IMG/VR virus record: IMGVR_UViG_3300027370_000004
Coordinates: 1 to 63,636 of that record
Length of the DNA: 63,636 nucleotides
From: a virus
Taxonomy: Duplodnaviria > Caudoviricetes
Reading direction: 5' to 3' (one strand)
The first letter of the stretch is position 1. The number at the start of each line of letters is the position of its first letter. Position numbers and translations under genes: made by a program. Under the pieces are notes generated by a model. It was not told the origin of the DNA. It searched no databases and saw nothing but the letters and a program-made list of their open reading frames with translations. This document shows positions 4,180-56,232 of this stretch, one piece after another.

Positions 4180-4908
4180 TCATGACGGGAATTCCTGAAT
4201 CATTAGATCAGGTGGGATTAAAGCCTTGCCCTCATCGGGAGTTCTTGCGGACATTTGCTTCATAAAGAACGGGATGTTTCTGTCTCGGCATTCTTTGAGC
4301 AAATTCCGTGCCCACGCTTCTTCGCAAGGTCGTCTGCCATTCCCACTTTCCCCGCCGAATACGAACCAGTTCGGCTTGTGCCAGACTTTGAATGTGGTCA
4401 GGGGTCCGATGGCTGGCTCGTAGCTGCACCAGGTAATCCCCGGCCATCTTTTCATCTGGTGCCAGCGTTCGTCGTAGCGCTCCTGATCTTCTGCGGTGAA
4501 ACCTTTCCAAACGGAGAGATTTTCGAGGATGTCCAAGGGCATCGCTTCGTAACCTTCCACCCGCTTCGTGAGTAGCTGCCAAATGAGATTCGGCGTTCCG
4601 CGAATCAATTCCCACAGGCGTTCTCGCTGGCCTTCAGGAGCCTCTACGTCGAATATGTCCGCCATTGACGCGCAGAACACTTTTCTCCCAAACTCGCCCG
4701 CAGCAGCCTTGGCATCCCATTTCAGCGGTTCGTTCCAGTGCTTTATCCCAAACTCCCTCCGAGGCTTCCCTGGGCCCCAATGATCCCCGCCCACGCGCTT
4801 GTCGAACGTTTCCGCATAACAGTTCACGCATCCCGGCGAGACTCGAGTGCATCCATGCCAGGGATTAAAAGTATGGTCGGTCCACGAGATAGAAGTTTTC
4901 TCACCCAT
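4180..4908 (-). CDS. DUF5131 / phage Gp37Gp68 family (radical-SAM-like) protein
   Basis: TSISWTDHTFNPWHGCTRVSPGCVNCYAE, VFCASMAD, QLLTKR, SYEPAIGP, GGESG, PFFMKQ. Confidence 0.9.
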   Translation of the reverse strand: MGEKTSISWTDHTFNPWHGCTRVSPGCVNCYAETFDKRVGGDHWGPGKPRREFGIKHWNEPLKWDAKAAAGEFGRKVFCASMADIFDVEAPEGQRERLWELIRGTPNLIWQLLTKRVEGYEAMPLDILENLSVWKGFTAEDQERYDERWHQMKRWPGITWCSYEPAIGPLTTFKVWHKPNWFVFGGESGNGRRPCEEAWARNLLKECRDRNIPFFMKQMSARTPDEGKALIPPDLMIQEFPS

Positions 4909-5317
4909 TGGAATCCACCTTTCGTCTCAATCTCCACGCCCGCCACCACATAGCGGTGCGCTTTCTTTTCTTCTGAACTCTCCGACAAGCTCTACATTCG
5001 CGCGTTCCATTGCGCCGCCGATGTGTATTGCCCTCGGTATATTCATGGCCATTTTTGCAATGCGTTAAGACCGGATGATGTCTGGAGTGGTGACACTTGG
5101 TGCAAAGAGATACAACCTTAAACGCACCCTCCTGCGAATACCCAGAATCGTGGTGGTACTCGTGCCTTCTCTCACTCTCCGACCATTGATGACCACAATC
5201 AGCGCATAGCAAATCGTTTGGGTCAGGCCGAAGCCCAAGATTTACCTGAATGTTGACGAACTGCCGAGCGGCTTCTTTCTCCGCATCCGTCCACGAAATT
5301 CCTGTCGTTTCGCCCAT
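4901..5317 (-). CDS. HNH-type endonuclease fused to a duplicated DUF5131 N-terminus
   Basis: CADC...HEYHH...LCTKCHHSRH nuclease motif and THCKNGHEY...RECRAC zinc domain. Starts MGETTGISWTD. Confidence 0.75.
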   Translation of the reverse strand: MGETTGISWTDAEKEAARQFVNIQVNLGLRPDPNDLLCADCGHQWSESERRHEYHHDSGYSQEGAFKVVSLCTKCHHSRHHPVLTHCKNGHEYTEGNTHRRRNGTRECRACRRVQKKRKRTAMWWRAWRLRRKVDSNG

Positions 5318-33100: not shown

Positions 33101-35418
33101 CTCACTGTGCAGTGATTACAGACGGCAAGCTGAACATGCGCCCAATTTTGCCCGCCACTTACATTTGTGACTGTGCGAACCCCTTTGACCCAGCATCCAG
33201 TGCAGTTATAGAGCGTGATCGGATAGGCATTCGTACTGGTCACGTCCATAGAGAGGTTTTCGACGCCGAAGTTCTGCACGGGACTTGTGGGCCACCATGC
33301 GCCCGGAGTCTGCGATGTTCTCCAGTTTGGCGCATAAATGCCCGGCGTGATTCCTATCGTGTACGGCCCTGTCCCTGTGATACTGGTTACGTTGACGATT
33401 TGCTGCTGGCCGCGAATCGTGCCCAAGGCGGTACTGCCCCGTTCAAACCCATTCGGCCCAGCACCTTGATAACACGCGGCAGAATGGTCGCCGCCCGTGG
33501 TATTCCCCCCGATCTCACAACCCGCATAGAGATTTCCGGTGTCCGATTGATCGTCGATCTGATCCAGAATGATAGGGTTGCCGACCGCGAGATTCGTCTT
33601 GCTGCTGAGGATGATTGAGGTTGCGGCTTGTGTATAAGTTCCTGAGACACCGTTGGTGCCTGTCCATGTGGCCGTATTCGAGGGCCCTCCCGCATAGTTG
33701 TTATCCACAGGCCCAGCACAGATTTGCGTGTTATTGCAATTACTGGAGCCGGAAGAGCCTGTCGGAACAAGGAAAGTCGATGCCGCGCCCGCGCCACGCA
33801 AAGTCACGTTGCTTTTGCCGATAATCTGACCCGTAGGAGCGAAACTGCCAGCGGGAAGGAGGACGTAGGTATTAGCAGGCGCTGAGACGATTGCGGCGTT
33901 AATGGAAGCTGCCGTTACGGTGCCTCCGGTGACGGTCGCGCAAGCTGTTGTCACGCATTGCGTTCGGGCATCGTTAATGTGAGCTGCTCCCGCCTGAGAA
34001 AAATCGATTGCGCGGGATGGACTGAGTACACTGGCCCAAGCTGTAGAACTTTCGGTGAAAGAGAATTCATCCAAGACTTCGGTTGCCGATCCGCCCGCTG
34101 CGCTCACGTCCAATTGCGTTTGGATGCCGGAGTTGTCTCCTTCTGAGTTCGGGAAGGAAGGCTCGGCTGGGAATCCCGTGTATACCGTGCCATCGACAGT
34201 CAGGGAGTCATAGTACATGCAGGGCTGGCCGGAGCAGTTTGTGCTGCCGATGGGATCTCTGTGCGTGACCCAAACAATCGTGTGCCACACTGCTGCCGTG
34301 GTGAGAATCTGGCACGGTACTGCGGTAGCGACCCACGCCCCTCCGCCTGAGTTCGCCGCTTGATTCCAGATATCCCACTTGCCGTTGCCGAGCGTCGGGG
34401 ATTCGCATTGCGAACCCATCATAAAACGCTGGCCGGAATTGAACTGGAATTGATCTTTCTCCGAGGATTGGATATTAGAAACACTCGGATAGCAAACGTG
34501 GTAAATGCCTATGAAGTGCGAGGCGTAATTCTGGATTCCTCCTTTCCACGGCCACAGTACATTTGTCGTCTGTCCGCTGGACAGTCCAGACTGGCCAACA
34601 AGCGTGACTTGCATGGCCGCACCATCAAGCGATGCACATGTCCCTGAATTATTATTGATGGTCTGCGTCGGGAGCGAGGTAGGAGTTCCGGAGCCTCCAG
34701 CGCACAGACTTCCAGCCGGATTGAGGTTACTGCAAGGCGGATTTTGCCAACCCGTCAAAGTGTCGTCTAAGTTTGTAAAGGTTACCGTTTGCGAGAGACA
34801 AGGAAGGCTTGCAAGACAAAGCAGTTGTGCTAGAATCAGTGGGCGCTTGACTGCCTGACACAGCCGAGCGCCCAACACCCTCGCTATGAAGGAGCGAAGA
34901 TGACAAAGAAGTCTACCACTAATCCCCGAGACAAGCGACTCCAGTGGTTCCTTAAGGCGCTTGCCGCACATAATTCTGACGAATGTTTGCTCTGGCCGTT
35001 CGCCCGCCGCAAAGCCTATGGCGTGATTTGGTATAAGAACAAGCGATATGGAGTTCACCGTCTGGCCTATTTTTTCACTTATGGCAAGTGGCCAGAGCCA
35101 GAAGGGATGCACGCTTGCGATGTGGCCTTGTGCTTCAATCCGCGCCACATAGAACCGGGTACACGTCTTGAGAATGAGCAACACTCCCGCGAACGAGGCA
35201 AGTATGCTTGTAACGTGAAATTGACAGAAGATCAGGTGCGGCAGATTCGCGCTGAGTATGTCAGAGGGGATCGCCAGCGAGGTTCGCATGGCCTTGCGCG
35301 AAAATACAAGACAAGTCACGGCCAAATAAAGCGAATTGTAACGCGCCGCTGCTGGGCAAATATCACATAGCCAAAGCCACATCCCAACGAAGGCGAGAGT
35401 GAGAAACCATTTCCGCAT
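27199..35418 (-). CDS. Giant (2739 aa) secreted multidomain putative polysaccharide-binding/depolymerase protein
   Basis: ATG overlaps the upstream TAA. Hydrophobic N-terminus and a second signal-like stretch before Q210. Contains beta-helix repeats, an ASH/choice-of-anchor-D-like domain, a He_PIG Ig domain and many Cys pairs. Confidence 0.75.
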   Translation of the reverse strand: MRKWFLTLAFVGMWLWLCDICPAAARYNSLYLAVTCLVFSRKAMRTSLAIPSDILSANLPHLIFCQFHVTSILASFAGVLLILKTCTRFYVARIEAQGHIASVHPFWLWPLAISEKIGQTVNSISLVLIPNHAIGFAAGERPEQTFVRIMCGKRLKEPLESLVSGISGRLLCHLRSFIARVLGARLCQAVKRPLILAQLLCLASLPCLSQTVTFTNLDDTLTGWQNPPCSNLNPAGSLCAGGSGTPTSLPTQTINNNSGTCASLDGAAMQVTLVGQSGLSSGQTTNVLWPWKGGIQNYASHFIGIYHVCYPSVSNIQSSEKDQFQFNSGQRFMMGSQCESPTLGNGKWDIWNQAANSGGGAWVATAVPCQILTTAAVWHTIVWVTHRDPIGSTNCSGQPCMYYDSLTVDGTVYTGFPAEPSFPNSEGDNSGIQTQLDVSAAGGSATEVLDEFSFTESSTAWASVLSPSRAIDFSQAGAAHINDARTQCVTTACATVTGGTVTAASINAAIVSAPANTYVLLPAGSFAPTGQIIGKSNVTLRGAGAASTFLVPTGSSGSSNCNNTQICAGPVDNNYAGGPSNTATWTGTNGVSGTYTQAATSIILSSKTNLAVGNPIILDQIDDQSDTGNLYAGCEIGGNTTGGDHSAACYQGAGPNGFERGSTALGTIRGQQQIVNVTSITGTGPYTIGITPGIYAPNWRTSQTPGAWWPTSPVQNFGVENLSMDVTSTNAYPITLYNCTGCWVKGVRTVTNVSGGQNWAHVQLAVCNHCTVRDSYHFGNIGDDYGYSVFVGSDDLFENNIGQFPAEAFFCNSDCEGSVATYNFSSNPYYGASANWLSQGDEFHGVQLYTLEEGNIGAGLYADSFHGTHVFNNQFRNRWDGHQQNNGQPTSSNTIALRLNPGTRYNNAIGNIFGTCTAGSMVACTAAYHTSYKSLSTATSIYNSVIDSGAYPETGTQDALVNTTSMFWGNWDVVSKAARFCGSGTLPSYCGGLSEVPYTGLPSALYENPVPASTSLPPSFIYSAKPSWWPAGIPWPNIGPDVTGGTEGQCSGGVADGAEVTQSSQCGTGTFIPDAMVYPNAAMLCYYGMGGTALGTGAALNGFTSTTSGCGYLSVDSGLPQANLSVTTLTFAAQLAGTTSATQAVTLSNGGSSTLVISGIAETNAGIFIPSDNCPSNLAAGAQCQITVKFAPTYPAPQSATISVESNAASSPNVITITGLGTCNGMCLGGPHPKRQLNTFGAPLNSSAPGYSHYLSILTGNTAGQYDTGATYALPASCVGSCTAGNATFMDQGSSFPIMNFSSFDPMVDLTASYGRINNIILYTSSYNGGGGGNSMVPAYIFSQAWADKLALDGVTMNPILTRQNSAYYPPSDYIYIASSAQYWRMTQTTCSNPRGDGDTHDIECKTGTSQPACFTNAAGGKGTSPCTDGTGVNAAVWTLTASSGLHAPPLDGFCGASYSVPQCNSLPVLSVSAISGGSATFTTNTVPYYPTGTAIVTNITTGGFSDYTCASGCTVTGVGTNTVTISGLSGSDAGGSVAGTMSGDMAININSPNSPTTAVLATTLPVPWELPRRVWQNTLFQQMALHYANSIGYLGMGLTKGGESSQDCTIACPFESANEYLSYEKIEYQFEGANGVGTSFAGRGNLNTNPNVEATYMFANNVGPDNNALQANWLFSIGCNGGVPPNGDLYHGGNFLLLATTVWNSPMPNGQYGVITVQTSQDSTPGSTPGACYIGGNAAGLGSCSQSSCSCSTGGTVGAMSADASCTNPPAFPAPNGYPGNLPAMQPYTNNVEEYFCDTALAEDSTYPLPTGICPTSYPQATWQAPYKAAQQTYIGASTGTAPVFTSAPLATFTVNLAANCPSINCFAVTATGSPTPTFTLTGGTLPSGVTFVDNGNGSATLSGDPTVAAITTLQFTATNSAGSANQAFVLTMVGGNTQGCAPNSGCTSGNFTFSFTGGATSLITLPQNWVNNLEYVGTTTNTINFPATLTGGNWICGTTHYGAYTANSLSSLNQAIADAETCRTANGSGTTINIPPGLFTATSGLLLPQTTGDSSNNFIILTSTSPLTIGQTACSHGIQDNLSASTQPGIRNIGCAGTAMSYQLGQTVTPISSGAFTLANGTNTNTSAYNDIASLWTIECSATNCDAISTASPDGNGVAPHNFALLNFEARPQAGLAQPSAIVKIGLGTETAVLQLPTHIHLGYYYVHGDWADGPPAVGTNVIPNDIVFNCNQCSAMYGYIDKSLRPASEGHGIYLGLAQQIKINHNWVEGQSIGLFAGGYSAAIPITNFLVSDIEDRANRYTYPYAWLGATAPTQGSYVRKNAHEFKVGTRIVHDGNIDENVDDSGAQGGLVLSWKTDNISSGTGSNFWVAQNNTTITNNLIRSSCNGVSLGSRSASGSGNGGGVTLPAQLYNYSNNLMQNVSVNNPGCGGVGTSGPQYGFRIAGATNTWTATASRDVTGTIAILTLTSAAGLTQSDQNIGDPVAVLNCADATFNTSPSAMGPLALTGTNPTGLTVVYANAGTPSATTTGCTFSNNQGWTENVIYNHNTNILGTQGQDPYSPTSGGTNPFSLSRGLSLANSIIVNGGANSVYAEGTRTETKAFDPSTLSFNNLLITGRSAITCPGFTGASCYTQYPGTISPPTNVYVTPTANCTGSSPTSGCAGFTGVMSTSSIPAFLNDWHSWSLVSGSTYAAGNAGQATDGTSLGFAPNLIDSAQTNNQYTCSNPCGSGPYADH
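34809..34897 (+). promoter_or_regulatory. Promoter (TTGCAA-16-TAGAAT, extended -10) and hairpinned leader of the nested HNH gene
   Basis: Stems 34840-34847/34867-34874 and TCGCT/AGCGA covering the SD. Confidence 0.55.
34900..35370 (+). mobile_element. HNH homing endonuclease nested antisense in the giant gene
   Basis: CLLWP...YG...VHRLAY...MHACDVALCFNPRH...TRLEN, plus a KLTEDQVRQIR HTH tail. Confidence 0.9.
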
Positions 35419-45124: not shown

Positions 45125-46594
45125 TCAGTTGTTACGAACAGTGAAAACTCTCTCGCCGCAAGTGTTCGACGTTGAGGCCGTATTGAACGCGCAAGCCGTG
45201 CCCACATATAGTGCGGTTGTGAGGTTGTAACCAAACTGAAATGGCGCTTGGAAAACCGTGGGCGCGGGCGATCCTCCTAAAGCTCCATCCCATGTCACCA
45301 TCGGAACGCAGGCTACTACGCCTCCGCTTCCGGCCACTTCCACGACGCATGTAATCGTAGTTACACCCTCCACGGATGCTGGATTGCTGGTTTGCGCTAT
45401 GAAATTGCTATAACTCCCCAATGACGCTGTGGTTCCCCATCCGAATGCAAAGCTACTGGTTACCGTGATTCCTGGCAGAATGCTGAAATTGCCCGTCAAG
45501 CTAAAGGTTGCACCAACAGAATTCAGGATTCCTGCCGGGATGACGCATGTATTGATTATTTGGCTGGAAGTGGTATTTCCGCTTACTGGAACATACGTGC
45601 CATTCGCGCAGAGTGTTTTACCCGTGCCCGAGCCTGCCTGTATTTCCGGGCCAAACAATTCGATCAACACGGGGACGCTTCCGGGCGAGGATACCGTATT
45701 CAGAATCCTTCCGATTATCTGTCCCGAGGTCGGATAACTTGCTCCAGCATCATGGCCATATCCAGCCGTGATTGTACTGTTCTGGACGTAATCTCCGCCT
45801 ACCGTCGAACCATCGAATAAAAGATTGGTTTCGCCGCTGGAGACGACGACTGCATTTCCCGTAGTTCCCGATGAGACTATGGTTACTCCAACAATGCCGC
45901 TCGTGTCCGATGTTTGGGCCTGCGTGACTGCCGACACTCCGCCTGTATTAGCTATTTTAGTCAACGTGTTCAAGAATGTGCCGCCGACGCTGTAATTTTG
46001 CAGCACAAAGCCCGTAGTAACTCCGCCGAATTGCGGCACGCCGTTGATGGTAGGAGTCACCAACAAACAATCGACTGTCAAGCACAGGCTGCCAGTCCCG
46101 CTTTGTGCTGTACTCGCCAAGGCTGGCGCCCCCCCTGCCGAAATAGCAGTCACGGCCAAAGGCCCGGCGATACTCTGCAACGCTCCGCTGATCGGGTTCA
46201 GGAGCACGGCCTGCGTCAAGAGTATGTCGCCTACATCCTCGATCTGGTCGATAGACCATATCTGCGCATGATTCGAGTCCTGCAAGGTCATTTTGTAAGG
46301 GGCAGGCTGGAGACGGACCTCTGCGGAGCCTAATGAATCAAGGATGATCGGATTTTGATTCTGCGTCAGGTTTCCGAGAGTATCTAAATGAAAGGTAGCC
46401 AATGGAACGGAGGTGCCAGCGGCGTAAGTATAAAGAAACCCTCCGACCAATGGATTGCCGCTGGCATCGAAGGCTTGAAACCTGGGGGGGGTTAAAAACG
46501 GATATGTAATTTGGCCCGAACTATTTGGTACAATTGCGGTCATGGCGAAGACTAGAATGGTGACCCCTATCCAGTGTTTACGCTGTAAGTGCAT
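45125..46594 (-). CDS. Tailspike/adaptor protein with head-binding-like domain and signal peptide (489 aa)
   Basis: PRFQAFDASGNPLVGGFLYTYAAGT..P.AT...NPIILD..G is the podophage tailspike N-terminal type. AGGGG SD before ATG 46594. Confidence 0.75.
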   Translation of the reverse strand: MHLQRKHWIGVTILVFAMTAIVPNSSGQITYPFLTPPRFQAFDASGNPLVGGFLYTYAAGTSVPLATFHLDTLGNLTQNQNPIILDSLGSAEVRLQPAPYKMTLQDSNHAQIWSIDQIEDVGDILLTQAVLLNPISGALQSIAGPLAVTAISAGGAPALASTAQSGTGSLCLTVDCLLVTPTINGVPQFGGVTTGFVLQNYSVGGTFLNTLTKIANTGGVSAVTQAQTSDTSGIVGVTIVSSGTTGNAVVVSSGETNLLFDGSTVGGDYVQNSTITAGYGHDAGASYPTSGQIIGRILNTVSSPGSVPVLIELFGPEIQAGSGTGKTLCANGTYVPVSGNTTSSQIINTCVIPAGILNSVGATFSLTGNFSILPGITVTSSFAFGWGTTASLGSYSNFIAQTSNPASVEGVTTITCVVEVAGSGGVVACVPMVTWDGALGGSPAPTVFQAPFQFGYNLTTALYVGTACAFNTASTSNTCGERVFTVRNN

Positions 46595-47114
46595 GTTTTT
46601 CCCCTGGCAGCAAAATTCCAAACGTGGACCACAAAGATTTTGCAGTCGAGCGTGTAAAGCCAAGCCACTCGCCGAGCGATTCTGGCCTAACGTCACAAAG
46701 ACTGATACCTGTTGGCTGTGGGGTGGACCAAGTGACCGGGATAGATACGGCGTGATTGGTGCTTACCCGAAGCGGGGTAAGAATCTTCGAGCAACCCATG
46801 CATCGCTCATTCTCCACAATCGCGGGGTTCCAGACGGAACGGTTATTTTGCATACCTGCGATAATCCGCCGTGCGTGCGACCAGATCATCTGGTTCCCGG
46901 TACTCATCGCCTTAATCGTGCTGACACTATTGCGAAGAATCGACACGCCAAGGGGGAGAGAGATGGGCGAAGCAAACTCAAGGAGAATTCCGTCCTTGAG
47001 ATAAGAGACCGATTCGCGCGCGGTGAAACTATGGGCTTCATTGCGCGAATTTTTAAAGTTTCGGATGTACAAGTCTCCAACATCGTTCGCCGCAAACAAT
47101 GGAAGCACATCTAG
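46542..47114 (+). mobile_element. HNH homing endonuclease inserted antisense at the 5' end of the tailspike gene
   Basis: CLRC...FCSRAC zinc ribbon, ERFWPNV...CWLW, LHTCDNPPCVRPDHL...N, HTH tail. TG-G-TACAAT 7 nt upstream. Confidence 0.9.
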
Positions 47115-47168
47115 CGCGATGCAGCCCAGTGCTAGAATTGCGAATATGTGGATTGTTTTCTTGGCCAT
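46578..47168 (-). CDS. Orphaned signal peptide read through the antisense HNH (possible coupling ORF)
   Basis: MAKKTIHIFAILALGCIA, then the antisense HNH. Stops just past the ATG at 46594. Confidence 0.45.
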   Translation of the reverse strand: MAKKTIHIFAILALGCIALDVLPLFAANDVGDLYIRNFKNSRNEAHSFTARESVSYLKDGILLEFASPISLPLGVSILRNSVSTIKAMSTGNQMIWSHARRIIAGMQNNRSVWNPAIVENERCMGCSKILTPLRVSTNHAVSIPVTWSTPQPTGISLCDVRPESLGEWLGFTRSTAKSLWSTFGILLPGEKHALTA

Positions 47169-47244
47169 TGTGATTACGCTTTTAGATTCTCACCGCGAAC
47201 AAAGGCGTAGACGCTGGTATCGTAAGTTTTGGTTCGGCTACTGA
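47146..47244 (+). CDS. 32-aa TM peptide, leaderless antisense moron
   Basis: TG-C-TAGAAT (47130-47138), ATG 7 nt later; MWIVFLAIVITLL...RRRRWYRK. Confidence 0.5.
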   Translation: MWIVFLAIVITLLDSHREQRRRRWYRKFWFGY

Positions 47245-48170
47245 CCCGCAACTTTGTCTAGACCGACGATCTTTGATGCGCCGTATAGTCCCGCCCCGGT
47301 CAAAGCTGCTTTCCATGCCGCGTTGATTGCATCTTCACTAAATCCCTTAAGCTGCATAGCATGGTGATACTCTTTCATGGCATCGGCGAATTTCTGTCCC
47401 TTTCCTACGGTATCGGCAGCATCTTCCAAACTCCCCTTTAGATTTTGATTCAATTGCCCCACAAGACGTTTGGTATTCGGATTCAGCTTCATCTGCTCAT
47501 CGGCTGACAGTTTCGAGATATTAGACTGAAAATCTTTCGCTTCCTCATAGGTCATTGGAGCGGAATTGGGAGCCGTGAGTCTGCGGACCAACTTATTTAC
47601 GGAACTTGGGAGATTCGCCCCCCTCTGCGATTGCTCATAAATCTTCAGCGCGGTATCTCCCACGTCTGACGTATCAATCGGAATAGACCCCGCCGACGCT
47701 TTCACATCCTGAAGTGCCGCTTCTGCTCTGGAAGCACTCGGGATTGCGTTTGCAGCCGCGCCTACGGCCTTTGCCGCCCCAGCGGTGCCCAAAGCGACCA
47801 GAGCCTGCCCTGCGCCTTGTCCAGCCGTCTCTTGGGCTGCTTTCGCATATGTGCCGACTGGATCAGGAGAGGCATTGATATCTTGAATTGCTGCTGGAAC
47901 CTGCGCCGCTTGCTCTGGTATCTGCGCGATGCTTTTGGCGGTATCAATCGGGTGCGCGATCATATGGCCTACGCCCGTAACCGCGTCCCTTACGCCCCTG
48001 CCGATACTCTGCACTCCCGATAGAGTCGCGTCCTTGTAGGAATCAAGTGGAATGTCCTTATCCAGAAATCCCTTCTCTGGCGCTGGCGCATAGCTCGCGC
48101 TCGGGTCGAATCCCGCCGCAACTGGCGCGTAAGACTGACTTGGATCGAAAGTTACTGCCGCTGTGCTCAT
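47238..48170 (-). CDS. Ejection (internal virion) protein
   Basis: Ala-rich helical protein, FDPS..YAP repeat; third gene in the ejection cluster. Confidence 0.65.
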   Translation of the reverse strand: MSTAAVTFDPSQSYAPVAAGFDPSASYAPAPEKGFLDKDIPLDSYKDATLSGVQSIGRGVRDAVTGVGHMIAHPIDTAKSIAQIPEQAAQVPAAIQDINASPDPVGTYAKAAQETAGQGAGQALVALGTAGAAKAVGAAANAIPSASRAEAALQDVKASAGSIPIDTSDVGDTALKIYEQSQRGANLPSSVNKLVRRLTAPNSAPMTYEEAKDFQSNISKLSADEQMKLNPNTKRLVGQLNQNLKGSLEDAADTVGKGQKFADAMKEYHHAMQLKGFSEDAINAAWKAALTGAGLYGASKIVGLDKVAGQ

Positions 48171-54770: not shown

Positions 54771-55556
54771 CTAGTACAAATACGAGATTGGCCCGACGTT
54801 AACCGTGAACGTTGTCGGCACCGTGATGTTATTGGGCGGAGAGCCAGCAGTTCCGGTCAGAGTTTCCGTTACTACATCAAGCCATGTCGCGGTCTTGATG
54901 GTTTGGAAGTTGTCTGTGGTTCCGTTGGTCTGATAGACGATGAAATACTGCCCAGATGCGAGGACGGTTGGCTGAACCCATGCCCTTTGCTGGAAGGCCG
55001 AGGCTCCCGATGTGACAGCGGCGGCGCTCGATGCAATGAGCGTTCCGCTATAGTCGTAGAGGTACACGGCATTGGAATCGGCCCCCACCGTGGCTCCATT
55101 CAGTACCGCAGCCCCAGTGCTGACCATGAGCCGATCCACCTTAACATCGGCCACGAACAGGCCCCCAGCGGTATCGGCGGTCGAGTTCCCCAATCCCGTC
55201 AAGCTGCCCTGAATCCCGGTCGCCGTAAAGAAGCGGAAACGCCCCTGCGTGGACGGAAATGTGGTCTGGGCATATTGCGGGAAGTACTGCGGAAGCCCGA
55301 ACCACACAATCGCCCCATTGCCGTGATTGGCGACCTTGGTTCCGTTCATGCCCCGCTGCACAGAAGCAGTCAAGGTTGTTGAGTTTACGGATTCCACCAC
55401 CATAAGCTCGGAATCCACTAACAGCATGGTTTGGATGCCGCCACCAGCCGTAGGAGCCGCCATTCCTGTCACTGAGGCCATAATGACGTTGTTCTGTGCA
55501 TTTGGCCCCGAGTTCAGAAGCGCGGTGAGTGTCGTGCTAGTCAAATTTGTTGCCAT
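54771..55556 (-). CDS. Capsid decoration/minor structural protein
   Basis: Follows the coat gene; VDSELM.V...V.RG.NGT...H..GA.V motif; AAGGAG RBS. Confidence 0.65.
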   Translation of the reverse strand: MATNLTSTTLTALLNSGPNAQNNVIMASVTGMAAPTAGGGIQTMLLVDSELMVVESVNSTTLTASVQRGMNGTKVANHGNGAIVWFGLPQYFPQYAQTTFPSTQGRFRFFTATGIQGSLTGLGNSTADTAGGLFVADVKVDRLMVSTGAAVLNGATVGADSNAVYLYDYSGTLIASSAAAVTSGASAFQQRAWVQPTVLASGQYFIVYQTNGTTDNFQTIKTATWLDVVTETLTGTAGSPPNNITVPTTFTVNVGPISYLY

Positions 55557-56232
55557 TCAAAGTCTCCTTTAGCAGTTTCCTGCCTATTCCGTTTTTCAGG
55601 CTAGTGACAAGGTTTTGTATCGTTAACCCTGTGCCTCTGCAAGCTGCCCGCATGGATTCATACACGACGCCATTGAATTCCAGGGGCTGCACATTGTGCC
55701 GATCAGAACCCTTGGGAGCAGATTCGCGCATTTTCCTTTTAGTCTCTTCACTGTGCGCCATCCCCTTGTTCCATGCTGGCTTCCCCTTCCTCGAACTGGC
55801 GTCGGAAAGTTTCTTCCGAATATCGTCCGACAGGGGTCCAGTTTTCTTGCCTTTGTTCCAAGGTTCGCGAGTTTTGTTGCGATACGACTCCAAGGCACGG
55901 GCAGCAATTCTAGCCCGCGTTTCAGGAGAGCATACCCGTCGCGCTCCCTTGCCTCCATCGGTAATGTTGTAACCGTTAGGGGCAAGTGTCCCATGAGACT
56001 TGATCGCCTCAGCCTCCATCCGCAGGAGTTCTTCATAGTCGCTCGATTCTCCGATACATTCGATTGAAAATGCATCCATCCCGTGCTTGCGGATGGCACA
56101 CGCAATCGCCATATCCTTGCGACCACATTTCGCTGCATACAGATGGCGGCTGACTCGTTTGCTGATTGCATTGACACTGGTTCCGATGTAAGCTTTGGCG
56201 CTTCGCCTGTGAGTTAGCTTGTATAACCACAT
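55537..56232 (-). mobile_element. GIY-YIG homing endonuclease with NUMOD3 repeats
   Basis: LYKLT...AYIG, AIRKHG..AF, E...I, PNGYNITDGG, PWNKG repeats, HSEETKRKM. Has its own TG-A-TATACT promoter and AAGGAG RBS. Confidence 0.9.

Follow-up and report, generated by a model that had tools for sequence, protein, structure and literature searches.

An antisense HNH homing-endonuclease gene in the leader of a phage tail-fibre gene, with a new signal-like leader on its opposite strand

Results

Organization of the fibre locus

The window, by which we mean the complete stretch of 63,636 nucleotides analysed here, represents a 63.6-kb soil phage whose late operon lies on the minus strand, with an HNH gene placed antisense within this operon. 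The host is probably a Terriglobales acidobacterium, and relatives were found in Terriglobales and Terriglobus records; because of these records, the Bacteroidetes Q-rule was dropped as a host marker. A search of the locus DNA against the phage GenBank collection gave no match. The locus comprises the following features:

45125..46513, minus strand: mature fibre/tailspike-type protein, 462 aa plus stop, starting at an invariant Gln (130 homologs; 98.5% identity to the HNH-less P0001)
46514..46594, minus strand: new signal-like leader, 27 codons (leader rule and control counts; the gene call P0244 starts here)
46526..46534, plus strand: TGGTACAAT, a candidate extended -10-like element predicted from sequence, ending 7 bases before the HNH ATG
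46542..47114, plus strand: intact HNH homing-endonuclease gene, 190 aa (Pfam and PHROG matches)
46578..47168, minus strand: 196-codon ORF, composed of the old leader and then of HNH codons 190-13 read antisense and in phase; taken as a candidate ribosome bridge (coupling ORF)
46601..46605, minus strand: AGGGG, SD-like, 6 bases before ATG 46594, antisense of HNH codons 20-22
47115..47168, minus strand: remnant of the original signal-like leader, 18 codons (matches leaders of HNH-less homologs; passes the leader rule)
47169..47237, minus strand: intergenic stretch before the old start, its first part kept in L002 (DNA alignment A3)
47238..48170, minus strand: upstream late-operon gene, 310 aa, syntenic anchor (72% identity to its L002 counterpart)

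In the 190-aa HNH protein, a Cys4 ribbon at the N-terminus is followed by the HNH_3 core and, at the C-terminus, by an HTH-like tail. Its ORF passes the cutoff of the HNH_3 profile (PF13392; 26.4 bits, cutoff 24.8) and matches PHROG 1872 (E 5.7e-23) and PHROG 826 (E 2.8e-21), and 490 homologs were found, the best listed of which share 35-51% identity with it. All 13 invariant columns of alignment A2 are present in the window HNH, and H104, C106, H116 and N125, which we take to be the catalytic residues of the HNH family, are invariant over 17 rows of this alignment, the window HNH included. The HNH ATG lacks an SD, and the mRNA may therefore be leaderless; in this form the endonuclease would probably be expressed from the -10-like sequence of its gene. 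This element, TGGTACAAT, was not among the hits of the two-hexamer promoter scan; both that scan (2 found versus 2.6 expected) and the terminator scan (3 found versus 3.5 expected) were at background.

On the other side of the locus, the 310-aa upstream gene found no match in Pfam and PHROG searches and belongs to no known family. No SD-like motif was seen before the old-leader ATG at 47168; such motifs stand at -8 to -13 ahead of many genes in the same phage.

The minus-strand ORF that begins with MAKKTIHIFAILALGCIA at 47168 runs into the antisense of the HNH gene, as the first-pass annotation had described: its codon 19, CTA at 47114-47112, is the complement of the HNH stop codon TAG. We likewise confirmed that this ORF stays open for 196 codons, down to its stop TAA at 46580-46578, and that an ATG at 46594-46592, preceded by AGGGG at a normal spacing, opens another frame. 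This ATG starts a 489-codon fibre ORF, the first 27 residues of which precede Q-I-T-Y-P-F, and the two ORFs overlap by 17 bases. Since (47168-46513) mod 3 = 1, the fibre is not in frame with the 196-codon ORF. An intein with an antisense endonuclease was not detectable: at E up to 0.01 the 196-aa ORF matches no Pfam family, a Hint splicing domain included, and it is out of the fibre frame; PHROG gave no family match for its product either. Public gene callers annotate the 196-codon ORF (P0241) and not the HNH gene, so that elements of this type are under-counted.

Insertion site and HNH-less homologs

A protein search found 130 homologs of the fibre. The 12 rows of alignment A1 all carry Gln28, and in each of the 11 aligned fibre homologs a leader ends immediately ahead of this Gln. 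To describe these leaders we used a home-made signal-peptide rule (a positively charged N-region, a hydrophobic core of 8 or more residues without charges, and small residues at -3 and -1), which is passed by the 11 homolog leaders, the old leader and the new leader alike. Neither leaderless fibres nor leaders lacking signal character, which would argue against a replaced signal, were found among the aligned homologs.

Homologs without the HNH show the original arrangement. In L002, the counterpart of the 310-aa gene lies directly 5' of an HNH-less fibre homolog, whose leader is joined to Q-I-N-Y-P. P0001, also without the HNH, has a mature fibre 98.5% identical to that of the window (7 of 462 residues differ) and a leader unrelated to the window's new leader. 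P0242 and P0002 are identical in 18 of their first 19 residues, up to 'CIA', beyond which P0002 continues into the mature fibre and P0242 into antisense HNH. The prediction that HNH-less homologs would join their leader directly to the mature fibre was borne out, with Q-I-x-Y-P at the joint. The old-leader remnant in the window breaks off directly behind "CIA", where the complement of the HNH stop codon follows, about 2 codons before a predicted signal-peptidase-type cleavage site, and the mature-side DNA junction could be placed to within about 6 bases. The same site is therefore polymorphic, with the HNH absent in P0001, P0002 and L002, and present in the window, in contigs of the runs X3-X6 and in P0242. 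By these alignments, the HNH gene is shown to have inserted antisense directly after leader codon 18 of the fibre gene.

Among viral contigs, a direct search with the fibre protein gave no match, and a fibre profile found only L002 and four weak N-domain matches. A metagenome contig scan yielded one short locus, L004, in which the upstream context is absent.

A new leader on the opposite strand of the HNH gene

Read in another frame, the new leader covers HNH codons 1-18 together with the 28 bases that precede the HNH ATG, TGGTACAAT among them. It satisfies the signal rule with a core of 18 residues, 2 positive charges and S-x-G, ending S-S-G before the mature Gln, and may direct export of the fibre and be cleaved off, as these features would predict. 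Such leaders are rare, and the arrangement exceeds what chance would give: an ATG-started leader passing the rule was found at 47 of 37,728 antisense control positions (0.12%), and only one of 76 HNH relatives has a rule-passing leader in the same frame. More than half of the synonymous recodings of HNH codons 1-19 (56%) still yield a passing leader, and the HNH codon choice therefore shows no sign of selection for the leader. Variants do not differ within the new-leader region, and RNA folding near the new start shows nothing unusual (z 0.14). In alignment, the CxxC at the HNH N-terminus coincides with that of the HNH homologs. With the HNH frame older by homology, the new leader is the overprinted frame, which upholds the earlier proposal of a replacement signal written over the invader.

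The fibre gene in HNH-carrying variants

Differences in the fibre among HNH-carrying variants (38 listed) are synonymous in 32 and non-synonymous in 6 cases, and the fibre gene is therefore still used; this purifying selection argues against the view that the insertion disabled the fibre, leaving either a decaying pseudogene or a leaderless start at ATG 46543, with the other four fibre-like proteins serving the phage. The phage does possess several other leader-bearing fibre genes, and ATG 46543 exists, sharing a CATG with the HNH start. However, this shorter start has no SD-like motif and yields a 10-residue stub which fails the leader rule, whereas a leader is kept throughout the aligned homologs, the 489-codon frame is intact, and the mature part is nearly identical to that of the HNH-less relative. 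We therefore consider loss of the fibre very improbable.

Independent occurrences and mobility

Contigs of four additional soil runs (X3-X6), which belong to four studies apart from the two possible source samples, carry the same HNH and the same new leader. This pair also occurs in a MAG contig of Terriglobales and among database proteins, P0241-P0244; of these, P0242 is ENA-derived and differs in its leader N-end. As the window is a viral contig assembled from a metagenome, misassembly of the HNH into the fibre gene has to be weighed; because the same junctions recur in X3-X6, in the MAG contig and in P0242, the locus is not an assembly artefact, and we give a chimera practically no weight.

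The contigs of X3 and X4 show 0 differences over positions 46415-47144 (730 bases, the cassette with its flanks) versus 13 in the adjacent 442 bases, which fits a recent transfer of the cassette. One contig of X5, in which 24 differences were counted, continues from fibre sequence into that of the insert. At least two different leader N-ends, three by hand reading, stand ahead of the cassette; as judged from these contigs and proteins, spread of the cassette among variants is shown. In the X3-X6 runs no contig joins across the HNH site, and no empty allele was seen there.

Absence of antisense stops in the two opposite-strand HNH genes

The codons TTA, CTA and TCA, which read as stops on the opposite strand, together make up 2.13% of 15,836 phage codons and are absent from HNH codons 14-190 despite an HNH GC3 of only 0.513. 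Windows of 190 codons free of all three occur in 141 of 8,872 cases. The probability of a stop-free antisense frame is about 0.02 unconditionally, and 0.055 given the Leu and Ser content of the HNH. The two same-strand HEGs of the phage contain 2 of 138 and 5 of 231 such codons.

A second antisense HNH gene of the phage, HNH#1, has a similar arrangement:

34792..35418, no strand assigned: sister case HNH#1 locus, all in one frame with a 2765-aa fibre ORF
34900-35370, plus strand: HNH#1 gene, between the old leader and a second signal-like leader
35418-35371, minus strand: HNH#1 old leader, 16 codons, in frame with the 2765-aa fibre ORF
GTG 34878 to 34792, minus strand: HNH#1 second signal-like leader, in frame with the 2765-aa fibre ORF

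HNH#1 has no antisense stop in 156 codons (probability 0.079 given its Leu and Ser content). The L002 phage provides no empty-site partner for HNH#1, since the N-part of the 2765-aa fibre lacks a homolog there. The earlier claim of two such events in one genome holds at the level of geometry; the 'recurrent safe harbour' derived from it is drawn from these two cases only.

A rather unlikely alternative is that the insertion and the new leader are real and the 196-codon ORF is open by luck, in which case the fibre would initiate independently at AGGGG/ATG 46594 and the old leader would make a useless peptide. The in-phase antisense frame is the one most often open by chance, the conditional probability given above is only 0.055, an SD-like motif is present, and no RNA structure hides the start. 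Against chance stands the fact that both opposite-strand HNH genes are stop-free and in register with their old leaders (joint P about 0.004), whereas the two same-strand HEGs are not.

Antisense ORFs of HNH relatives in other phages

Relatives in other phages provide evidence on both sides of this question. The ratio of observed to expected antisense stops is 1.09 at loci with opposite-strand genes on both sides, a class assigned by a crude longest-ORF rule, and 1.46 for same-strand HNH relatives; there is therefore no general depletion of antisense stops in opposite-strand relatives, as a chance opening would have it. L010, on the other hand, has 0 antisense stops where 6-9 are expected at 45% GC.

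Coupling was defined strictly: the antisense ORF had to overlap, or end at most 10 bases from, the first ATG of an ORF that lies on the minus strand and is 100 aa or longer. By this rule, 8 of 21 stop-free in-phase antisense frames of HNH relatives run to the next gene's ATG, versus 6 of 151 control frames (Fisher P 2.4e-5; 1.1e-4 with the near-duplicates L051 and L053 counted once), which speaks against luck as the sole cause. At least one flanking gene was confirmed by PHROG in 5 of the 7 distinct loci of this set. Only the strict rule separates the in-phase frame from the controls: under loose coupling criteria, control frames show coupling-like geometry almost as often. The first-pass annotation had proposed that the old leader now acts as a coupling ORF. 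The shortage of antisense stops in this phage and the similarly built bridge ORFs elsewhere favour this proposal, and the putative coupling is suggested by these comparisons.

Discussion

We propose that a free-standing HNH gene inserted antisense in the leader-coding part of a tail-fibre gene, and that the fibre survived because the other strand of the insert supplies what was lost: a bridge ORF and a new leader. Ribosomes would start at the old ATG 47168, read 18 leader codons and 178 stop-free antisense codons, and stop at the TAA 14 bases past the new start. At this start, ATG 46594 would open the fibre frame and provide a positive N-end, a hydrophobic core and S-S-G, followed by the same mature Gln as in the homologs. 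Translation of the 196-codon bridge would keep the foreign part of the late transcript, about 600 bases, covered by ribosomes, which could avoid polarity and hand ribosomes to the new start by translational coupling. We regard this as the probable explanation of the locus. Its established parts are the insertion and its site, the intact HNH gene, the geometry of the frames, the signal-like character and rarity of the new leader, the purifying selection seen on the fibre of variants with the HNH, and the cassette's spread among variants. Points that we count against it include the modest stop shortage of this locus taken singly and the putative cleavable export signal on a virion fibre.

A broader hypothesis, which we put forward tentatively and consider possible yet short of even chances, is that homing-endonuclease cassettes lying antisense in the late operons of phages bring along a 'repair kit' on the non-coding strand: a stop-free bridge ORF that leads ribosomes from the interrupted or upstream gene to the next start and, in the present case, also a ribosome-binding site and a replacement signal peptide. 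Homing into the leader DNA of secreted fibre genes would then be non-lethal, both strands of the cassette would be selected, and leader DNA would be a preferred landing site.

The locus offers a natural, datable replacement of a targeting peptide by antisense-strand sequence of a mobile gene, with the undamaged fibre allele persisting in close relatives. It could also show how a HEG that lands backward in a packed operon, with neither intron nor intein, may be accommodated: the invaded frame would remain open to translation, and the host gene would start anew where that frame ends. This bridge-ORF idea could apply to many uncultured phages.

Known free-standing HEGs that split phage genes include mobE in nrdA of Aeromonas phage Aeh1, mobA in T4 gene 60/39, and seg in gene 43 of phage 25 (PMC2988022). 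As in these systems, a coding region is interrupted by a free-standing gene for an HNH-type endonuclease, and the host gene consists of two cistrons and still works. Presence/absence between close relatives is shared as well, and co-conversion of flanks and translational coupling, both features of such genes, may apply here too. Unlike in these systems, the endonuclease gene here is antisense to the operon, and an ORF without stops runs the length of the insert. A signal-like leader, dispensable in the product, is all that the 5' piece encodes, and the 3' piece would gain its leader and ribosome-binding site from the invader's opposite strand.

The ShiLan domain, a 'hidden HNH' insertion found in the DNA methylase genes of actinophages (Arsenault, Gosselin and Gogarten 2025, PMC11855218), resembles our locus in that an HNH lies inside a host ORF, the frame entered from upstream has no stops, and no intein or intron is involved; the ShiLan HNH is actively homing. 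However, the ShiLan HNH shares the strand of its host gene, though not the frame, and the host frame goes on into the host protein. At our locus, in contrast, the two strands are opposite, the frame read from upstream comes to an end within the insert, and the host protein begins again in a third frame, behind a new leader. An open host frame continuing into the host protein, the mark of ShiLan, is thus absent at the 46542..47114 HNH and present at HNH#1, which represents an in-frame version of a ShiLan-like arrangement.

Finally, overprinting, the de novo origin of overlapping genes, is documented in bacteria and viruses (e.g. PMC4683798, PMC8850804), and here, too, a new coding frame arose atop an older gene, in this case on its antisense strand. 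In contrast to such cases, its product is a 27-residue targeting peptide which replaces a lost one, rather than a whole protein, and the older frame belongs to a mobile element.

An HNH gene antisense to the leader region of a fibre gene

Inspection of ORFs and sequence recovered every element that the first-pass annotation had described at this locus, each where it had been placed:

46542-47114, plus strand, HNH endonuclease gene (Pfam HNH_3, 26.4 bits, cutoff 24.8; PHROG 1872, E 5.7e-23)
ATG 47168 to TAA 46580-46578, minus strand, 196-codon ORF (candidate bridge ORF), whose first 18 codons encode a signal-like leader (old leader)
ATG 46594 (start), minus strand, fibre ORF of 489 codons in a different frame from the 196-codon ORF, with AGGGG six bases upstream; its first 27 residues form the new leader

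In the 196-codon ORF, codon 19 complements the HNH stop; from there on the ORF reads HNH codons 190 down to 13 antisense and in phase. Eight consecutive C on the minus strand (46487-46494) fall in fibre codons 34-37 (T-P-P-R), and the soil-run contigs showed no change in the length of this run.

The HNH protein has 490 database homologs, the best ones listed being 35-51% identical, and shares their architecture of an N-terminal CxxC...CSxxC ribbon, an HNH core with every invariant residue kept in the alignment, and a C-terminal helix-turn-helix-like tail. Among the matches listed from a collection of 5.8 billion proteins, none exceeded 51% identity, yet the same DNA occurs in several records. 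Public gene calls annotate the 196-aa antisense ORF as a protein (P0241-P0243; 4 contigs), and public gene callers seem to choose the wrong strand at 46542-47168. The HNH start (46526-46544) has no Shine-Dalgarno (SD) motif and is preceded by TGGTACAAT, which ends 7 bases before the ATG; this suggests expression from a leaderless mRNA. A -10-like hexamer 6-7 bases before the HNH ATG, again without SD, is found in the window (46526-46544) and in the viral loci L051/L053 (~2455-2491) and L043 (~2459-2476), hinting at leaderless expression of the antisense HNH genes there as well.

Insertion into leader-coding DNA

As the first-pass annotation had predicted, HNH-less homologs carry a leader joined directly to the mature fibre. 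The related complete phage L002, whose upstream gene is 72% identical, lacks the HNH gene; its fibre homolog directly follows the upstream gene, with the leader joined straight to Q-I-N-Y-P, and window positions 47237-47115 align at the DNA level with the L002 intergenic stretch and part of this leader. The fibre has 130 database homologs, 11 of which were aligned with the window protein. All 12 rows have Gln at the position following the leader, and in 11/11 homologs the leader ends directly before it, mostly with an A-x-A-type motif. The mature fibre of P0001, a homolog without HNH, differs from that of the window at only 7 of 462 residues, and its leader is unrelated to the new leader. HNH-less P0002 shares 18 of its first 19 residues with P0242, a variant of the 196-aa ORF from the database, and the two split exactly after 'CIA', P0002 continuing into Q-A-Q-I-P and the mature fibre, P0242 into antisense HNH. 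The HNH gene was thus inserted into the stretch that codes for the leader, about two codons ahead of the cleavage site, and the insertion is recent on the scale of fibre divergence.

A leader overprinted on the HNH N-terminus

A simple rule was used to define leaders: a net positive N-end, a hydrophobic core of 8 or more residues without charge, small side chains at -3/-1 and a length of 14-40. This rule is passed by the new leader (27 residues), by the old one (18 residues) and by all 11 homolog leaders. Such leaders are rare by chance: 47 of 37,728 antisense control positions in the phage pass (0.12%; 0.42% when GTG and TTG starts are included), and of 76 HNH relatives one passes in the corresponding antisense frame. 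Since its CxxC aligns with homologs, the HNH frame is the older one, and the new leader is therefore the overprinted frame, in agreement with the earlier proposal that a signal was overprinted on the invader. When HNH codons 1-19 were recoded synonymously, 56% of the recodings still satisfied the rule; the leader property thus resides in the amino-acid sequence of the HNH N-end, which is rich in codons beginning with A, and not in codon choice. Either this N-end may have been shaped after insertion, or the insertion may have survived through a chance fit.

One CATG palindrome (46541-46544) is common to the HNH ATG (46542-46544) and a minus-strand ATG (46543-46541) that encodes residue 18 of the new leader. 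As an alternative fibre start, the latter would yield a 10-residue stub that fails the leader rule, and no SD-like motif precedes it.

A sister case and the absence of antisense stops

The phage carries at least four homing-endonuclease genes in its 63.6 kb. Besides the gene at 46542-47114, these are:

34792-35418, sister locus with a second HNH gene (HNH#1, 34900-35370, opposite strand to the operon)
4901-5317 and 55537-56232, operon strand, further homing-endonuclease genes, one HNH-like and one GIY-YIG-like between head and tail genes

The two opposite-strand HNH proteins are 31% identical. At the sister locus, the preceding fibre gene ends in a stop that shares bases with the old leader ATG at 35418 (TAATG). 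The old leader is 16 codons long and continues directly into the complement of the HNH#1 stop. No stop interrupts the antisense frame over its 156 codons, which are in frame with the 2765-aa fibre, and a second leader-like stretch (GTG 34878) satisfies the leader rule directly before the mature Gln. A search for an empty-site homolog of HNH#1 found none.

In-phase antisense stops arise only from TTA, CTA and TCA, which make up 2.13% of the 15,836 phage codons; 141 of 8,872 windows of 190 codons are free of them. HNH codons 14-190 contain none despite a low GC3 of 0.513, and the remaining two antisense frames hold 4 and 12 stops. Allowing for Leu and Ser content, a stop-free antisense frame has a probability of 0.055 in this gene and 0.079 in HNH#1; TTA, CTA and TCA codons number 2 and 5 in the two endonuclease genes on the operon strand. 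For both opposite-strand genes, translation starting at the old leader's ATG would run into exactly this open frame. As a sign of a bridge, stop-free frames in register with the old leaders are suggestive, not conclusive.

Candidate bridge ORFs in relatives

We fetched 80 viral loci with HNH relatives (77 unique, 75 analysable). Relatives classed as opposite-strand flanked, taken together, showed no depletion of antisense stops (observed/expected 1.09), and under loose coupling criteria the in-phase frame was not set apart, control frames being similar. A strict rule counted only antisense ORFs whose end overlapped, by 1 base, the first ATG of a minus-strand ORF (100 aa or longer) or lay no more than 10 bases from it. 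Such ends occurred in 8 of the 21 loci whose in-phase antisense frame is free of stops and in 1 of the 54 with stops; against 6 of 151 control frames, the 8/21 gives a Fisher P of 2.4e-5, or 1.1e-4 with the near-duplicates L051 and L053 taken as one.

In unrelated phages, a stop-free antisense ORF crosses the whole HNH gene and ends at or a few bases from the next ATG.

HNH-spanning antisense ORFs in fetched viral loci
L010: 401-1285
L043: 2420-3058
L051: 2444-2986
L052: 2438-2956
L029: 2375-2974
L061: 2336-3115
L076: 2453-3112

L010, the best match to the HNH profile among the relatives (E 5e-45; 45% GC), has 0 antisense stops versus 6-9 expected, and the stop of its 294-codon antisense ORF lies one base before the ATG of the next gene. 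In several loci the bridge starts about 10 bases or less from the stop of the preceding gene. At least one real flanking gene was identified by PHROG in 5 of 7 distinct loci (major head, large terminase, Neck1 and others); bridge ORFs had PHROG matches in 0 of 7.

Population variants and selection on the fibre

The locus is present in contigs of four further soil sequencing runs. In runs X3 and X4, two overlapping contigs across 46415-47144 show 0 differences and the adjacent 442 fibre bases 13. A 1,029-base fibre contig from X5 has 24 differences and reaches position 46556 within the insert; between 46765 and 47144, in the HNH part, this run has 4. All three runs diverge from the window at 47144/47145, within the old leader, beyond which one variant (P0242) has another leader N-end; reading by hand suggests that the loose end of X5 is a third. 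This pattern fits that expected for a homing cassette copied between related phages along with a short stretch of flanking DNA. Among the differences listed (40 of 44), 38 lie in the fibre ORF, 32 of them synonymous and 6 non-synonymous; the fibre is therefore under purifying selection in insert-carrying lineages.

The phage and its host

The IMG/VR virus record, of 63,636 bases, is about 92% complete. Its minus-strand genes encode terminase, portal, scaffold, major head, head-closure and DNA-ejection proteins; after these come five large fibre-like genes and lysis genes:

26484-46594, fibre-like genes of 262, 2765, 2080, 1160 and 489 aa

Signal-peptide-like leaders open all five fibre-like proteins, mostly with Gln next, and the same holds in homologs elsewhere. 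Virion-type fibres with export signals are unusual. The host is probably an acidobacterium, because a MAG contig assigned to Terriglobales is identical to the window at the HNH/fibre locus, and a Terriglobus genome (L091) encodes a fibre homolog with its own leader before Q-T-I-Y-P.

Proposed expression and comparison with known systems

We infer all expression steps from the sequence. In the most likely mechanism, ribosomes would start at the old leader as before insertion, stay in the open antisense frame across the HNH insert and stop 14 bases beyond ATG 46594, at which the fibre could be started by restarting ribosomes or by fresh ones via AGGGG. The predicted product is a fibre precursor whose leader is new and whose mature N-terminus is unchanged, and ribosome cover would shield from polarity about 600 bases of late transcript that would otherwise lack translation.

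Searches of open-access text on antisense, coupling and homing endonucleases, and on overprinting and signal peptides, listed no paper in which the antisense strand of an endonuclease gene supplies a replacement leader. The 'hidden HNH' of ShiLan (PMC11855218) lies on the same strand, out of frame, and the host methylase frame reads through it. Passages of a T4 review (PMC2988022) describe gene-splitting free-standing endonucleases (mobE/nrdA, mobA, seg), give segD as antisense and state that invaders must suit the host expression programme. The same passages describe no bridge ORF.
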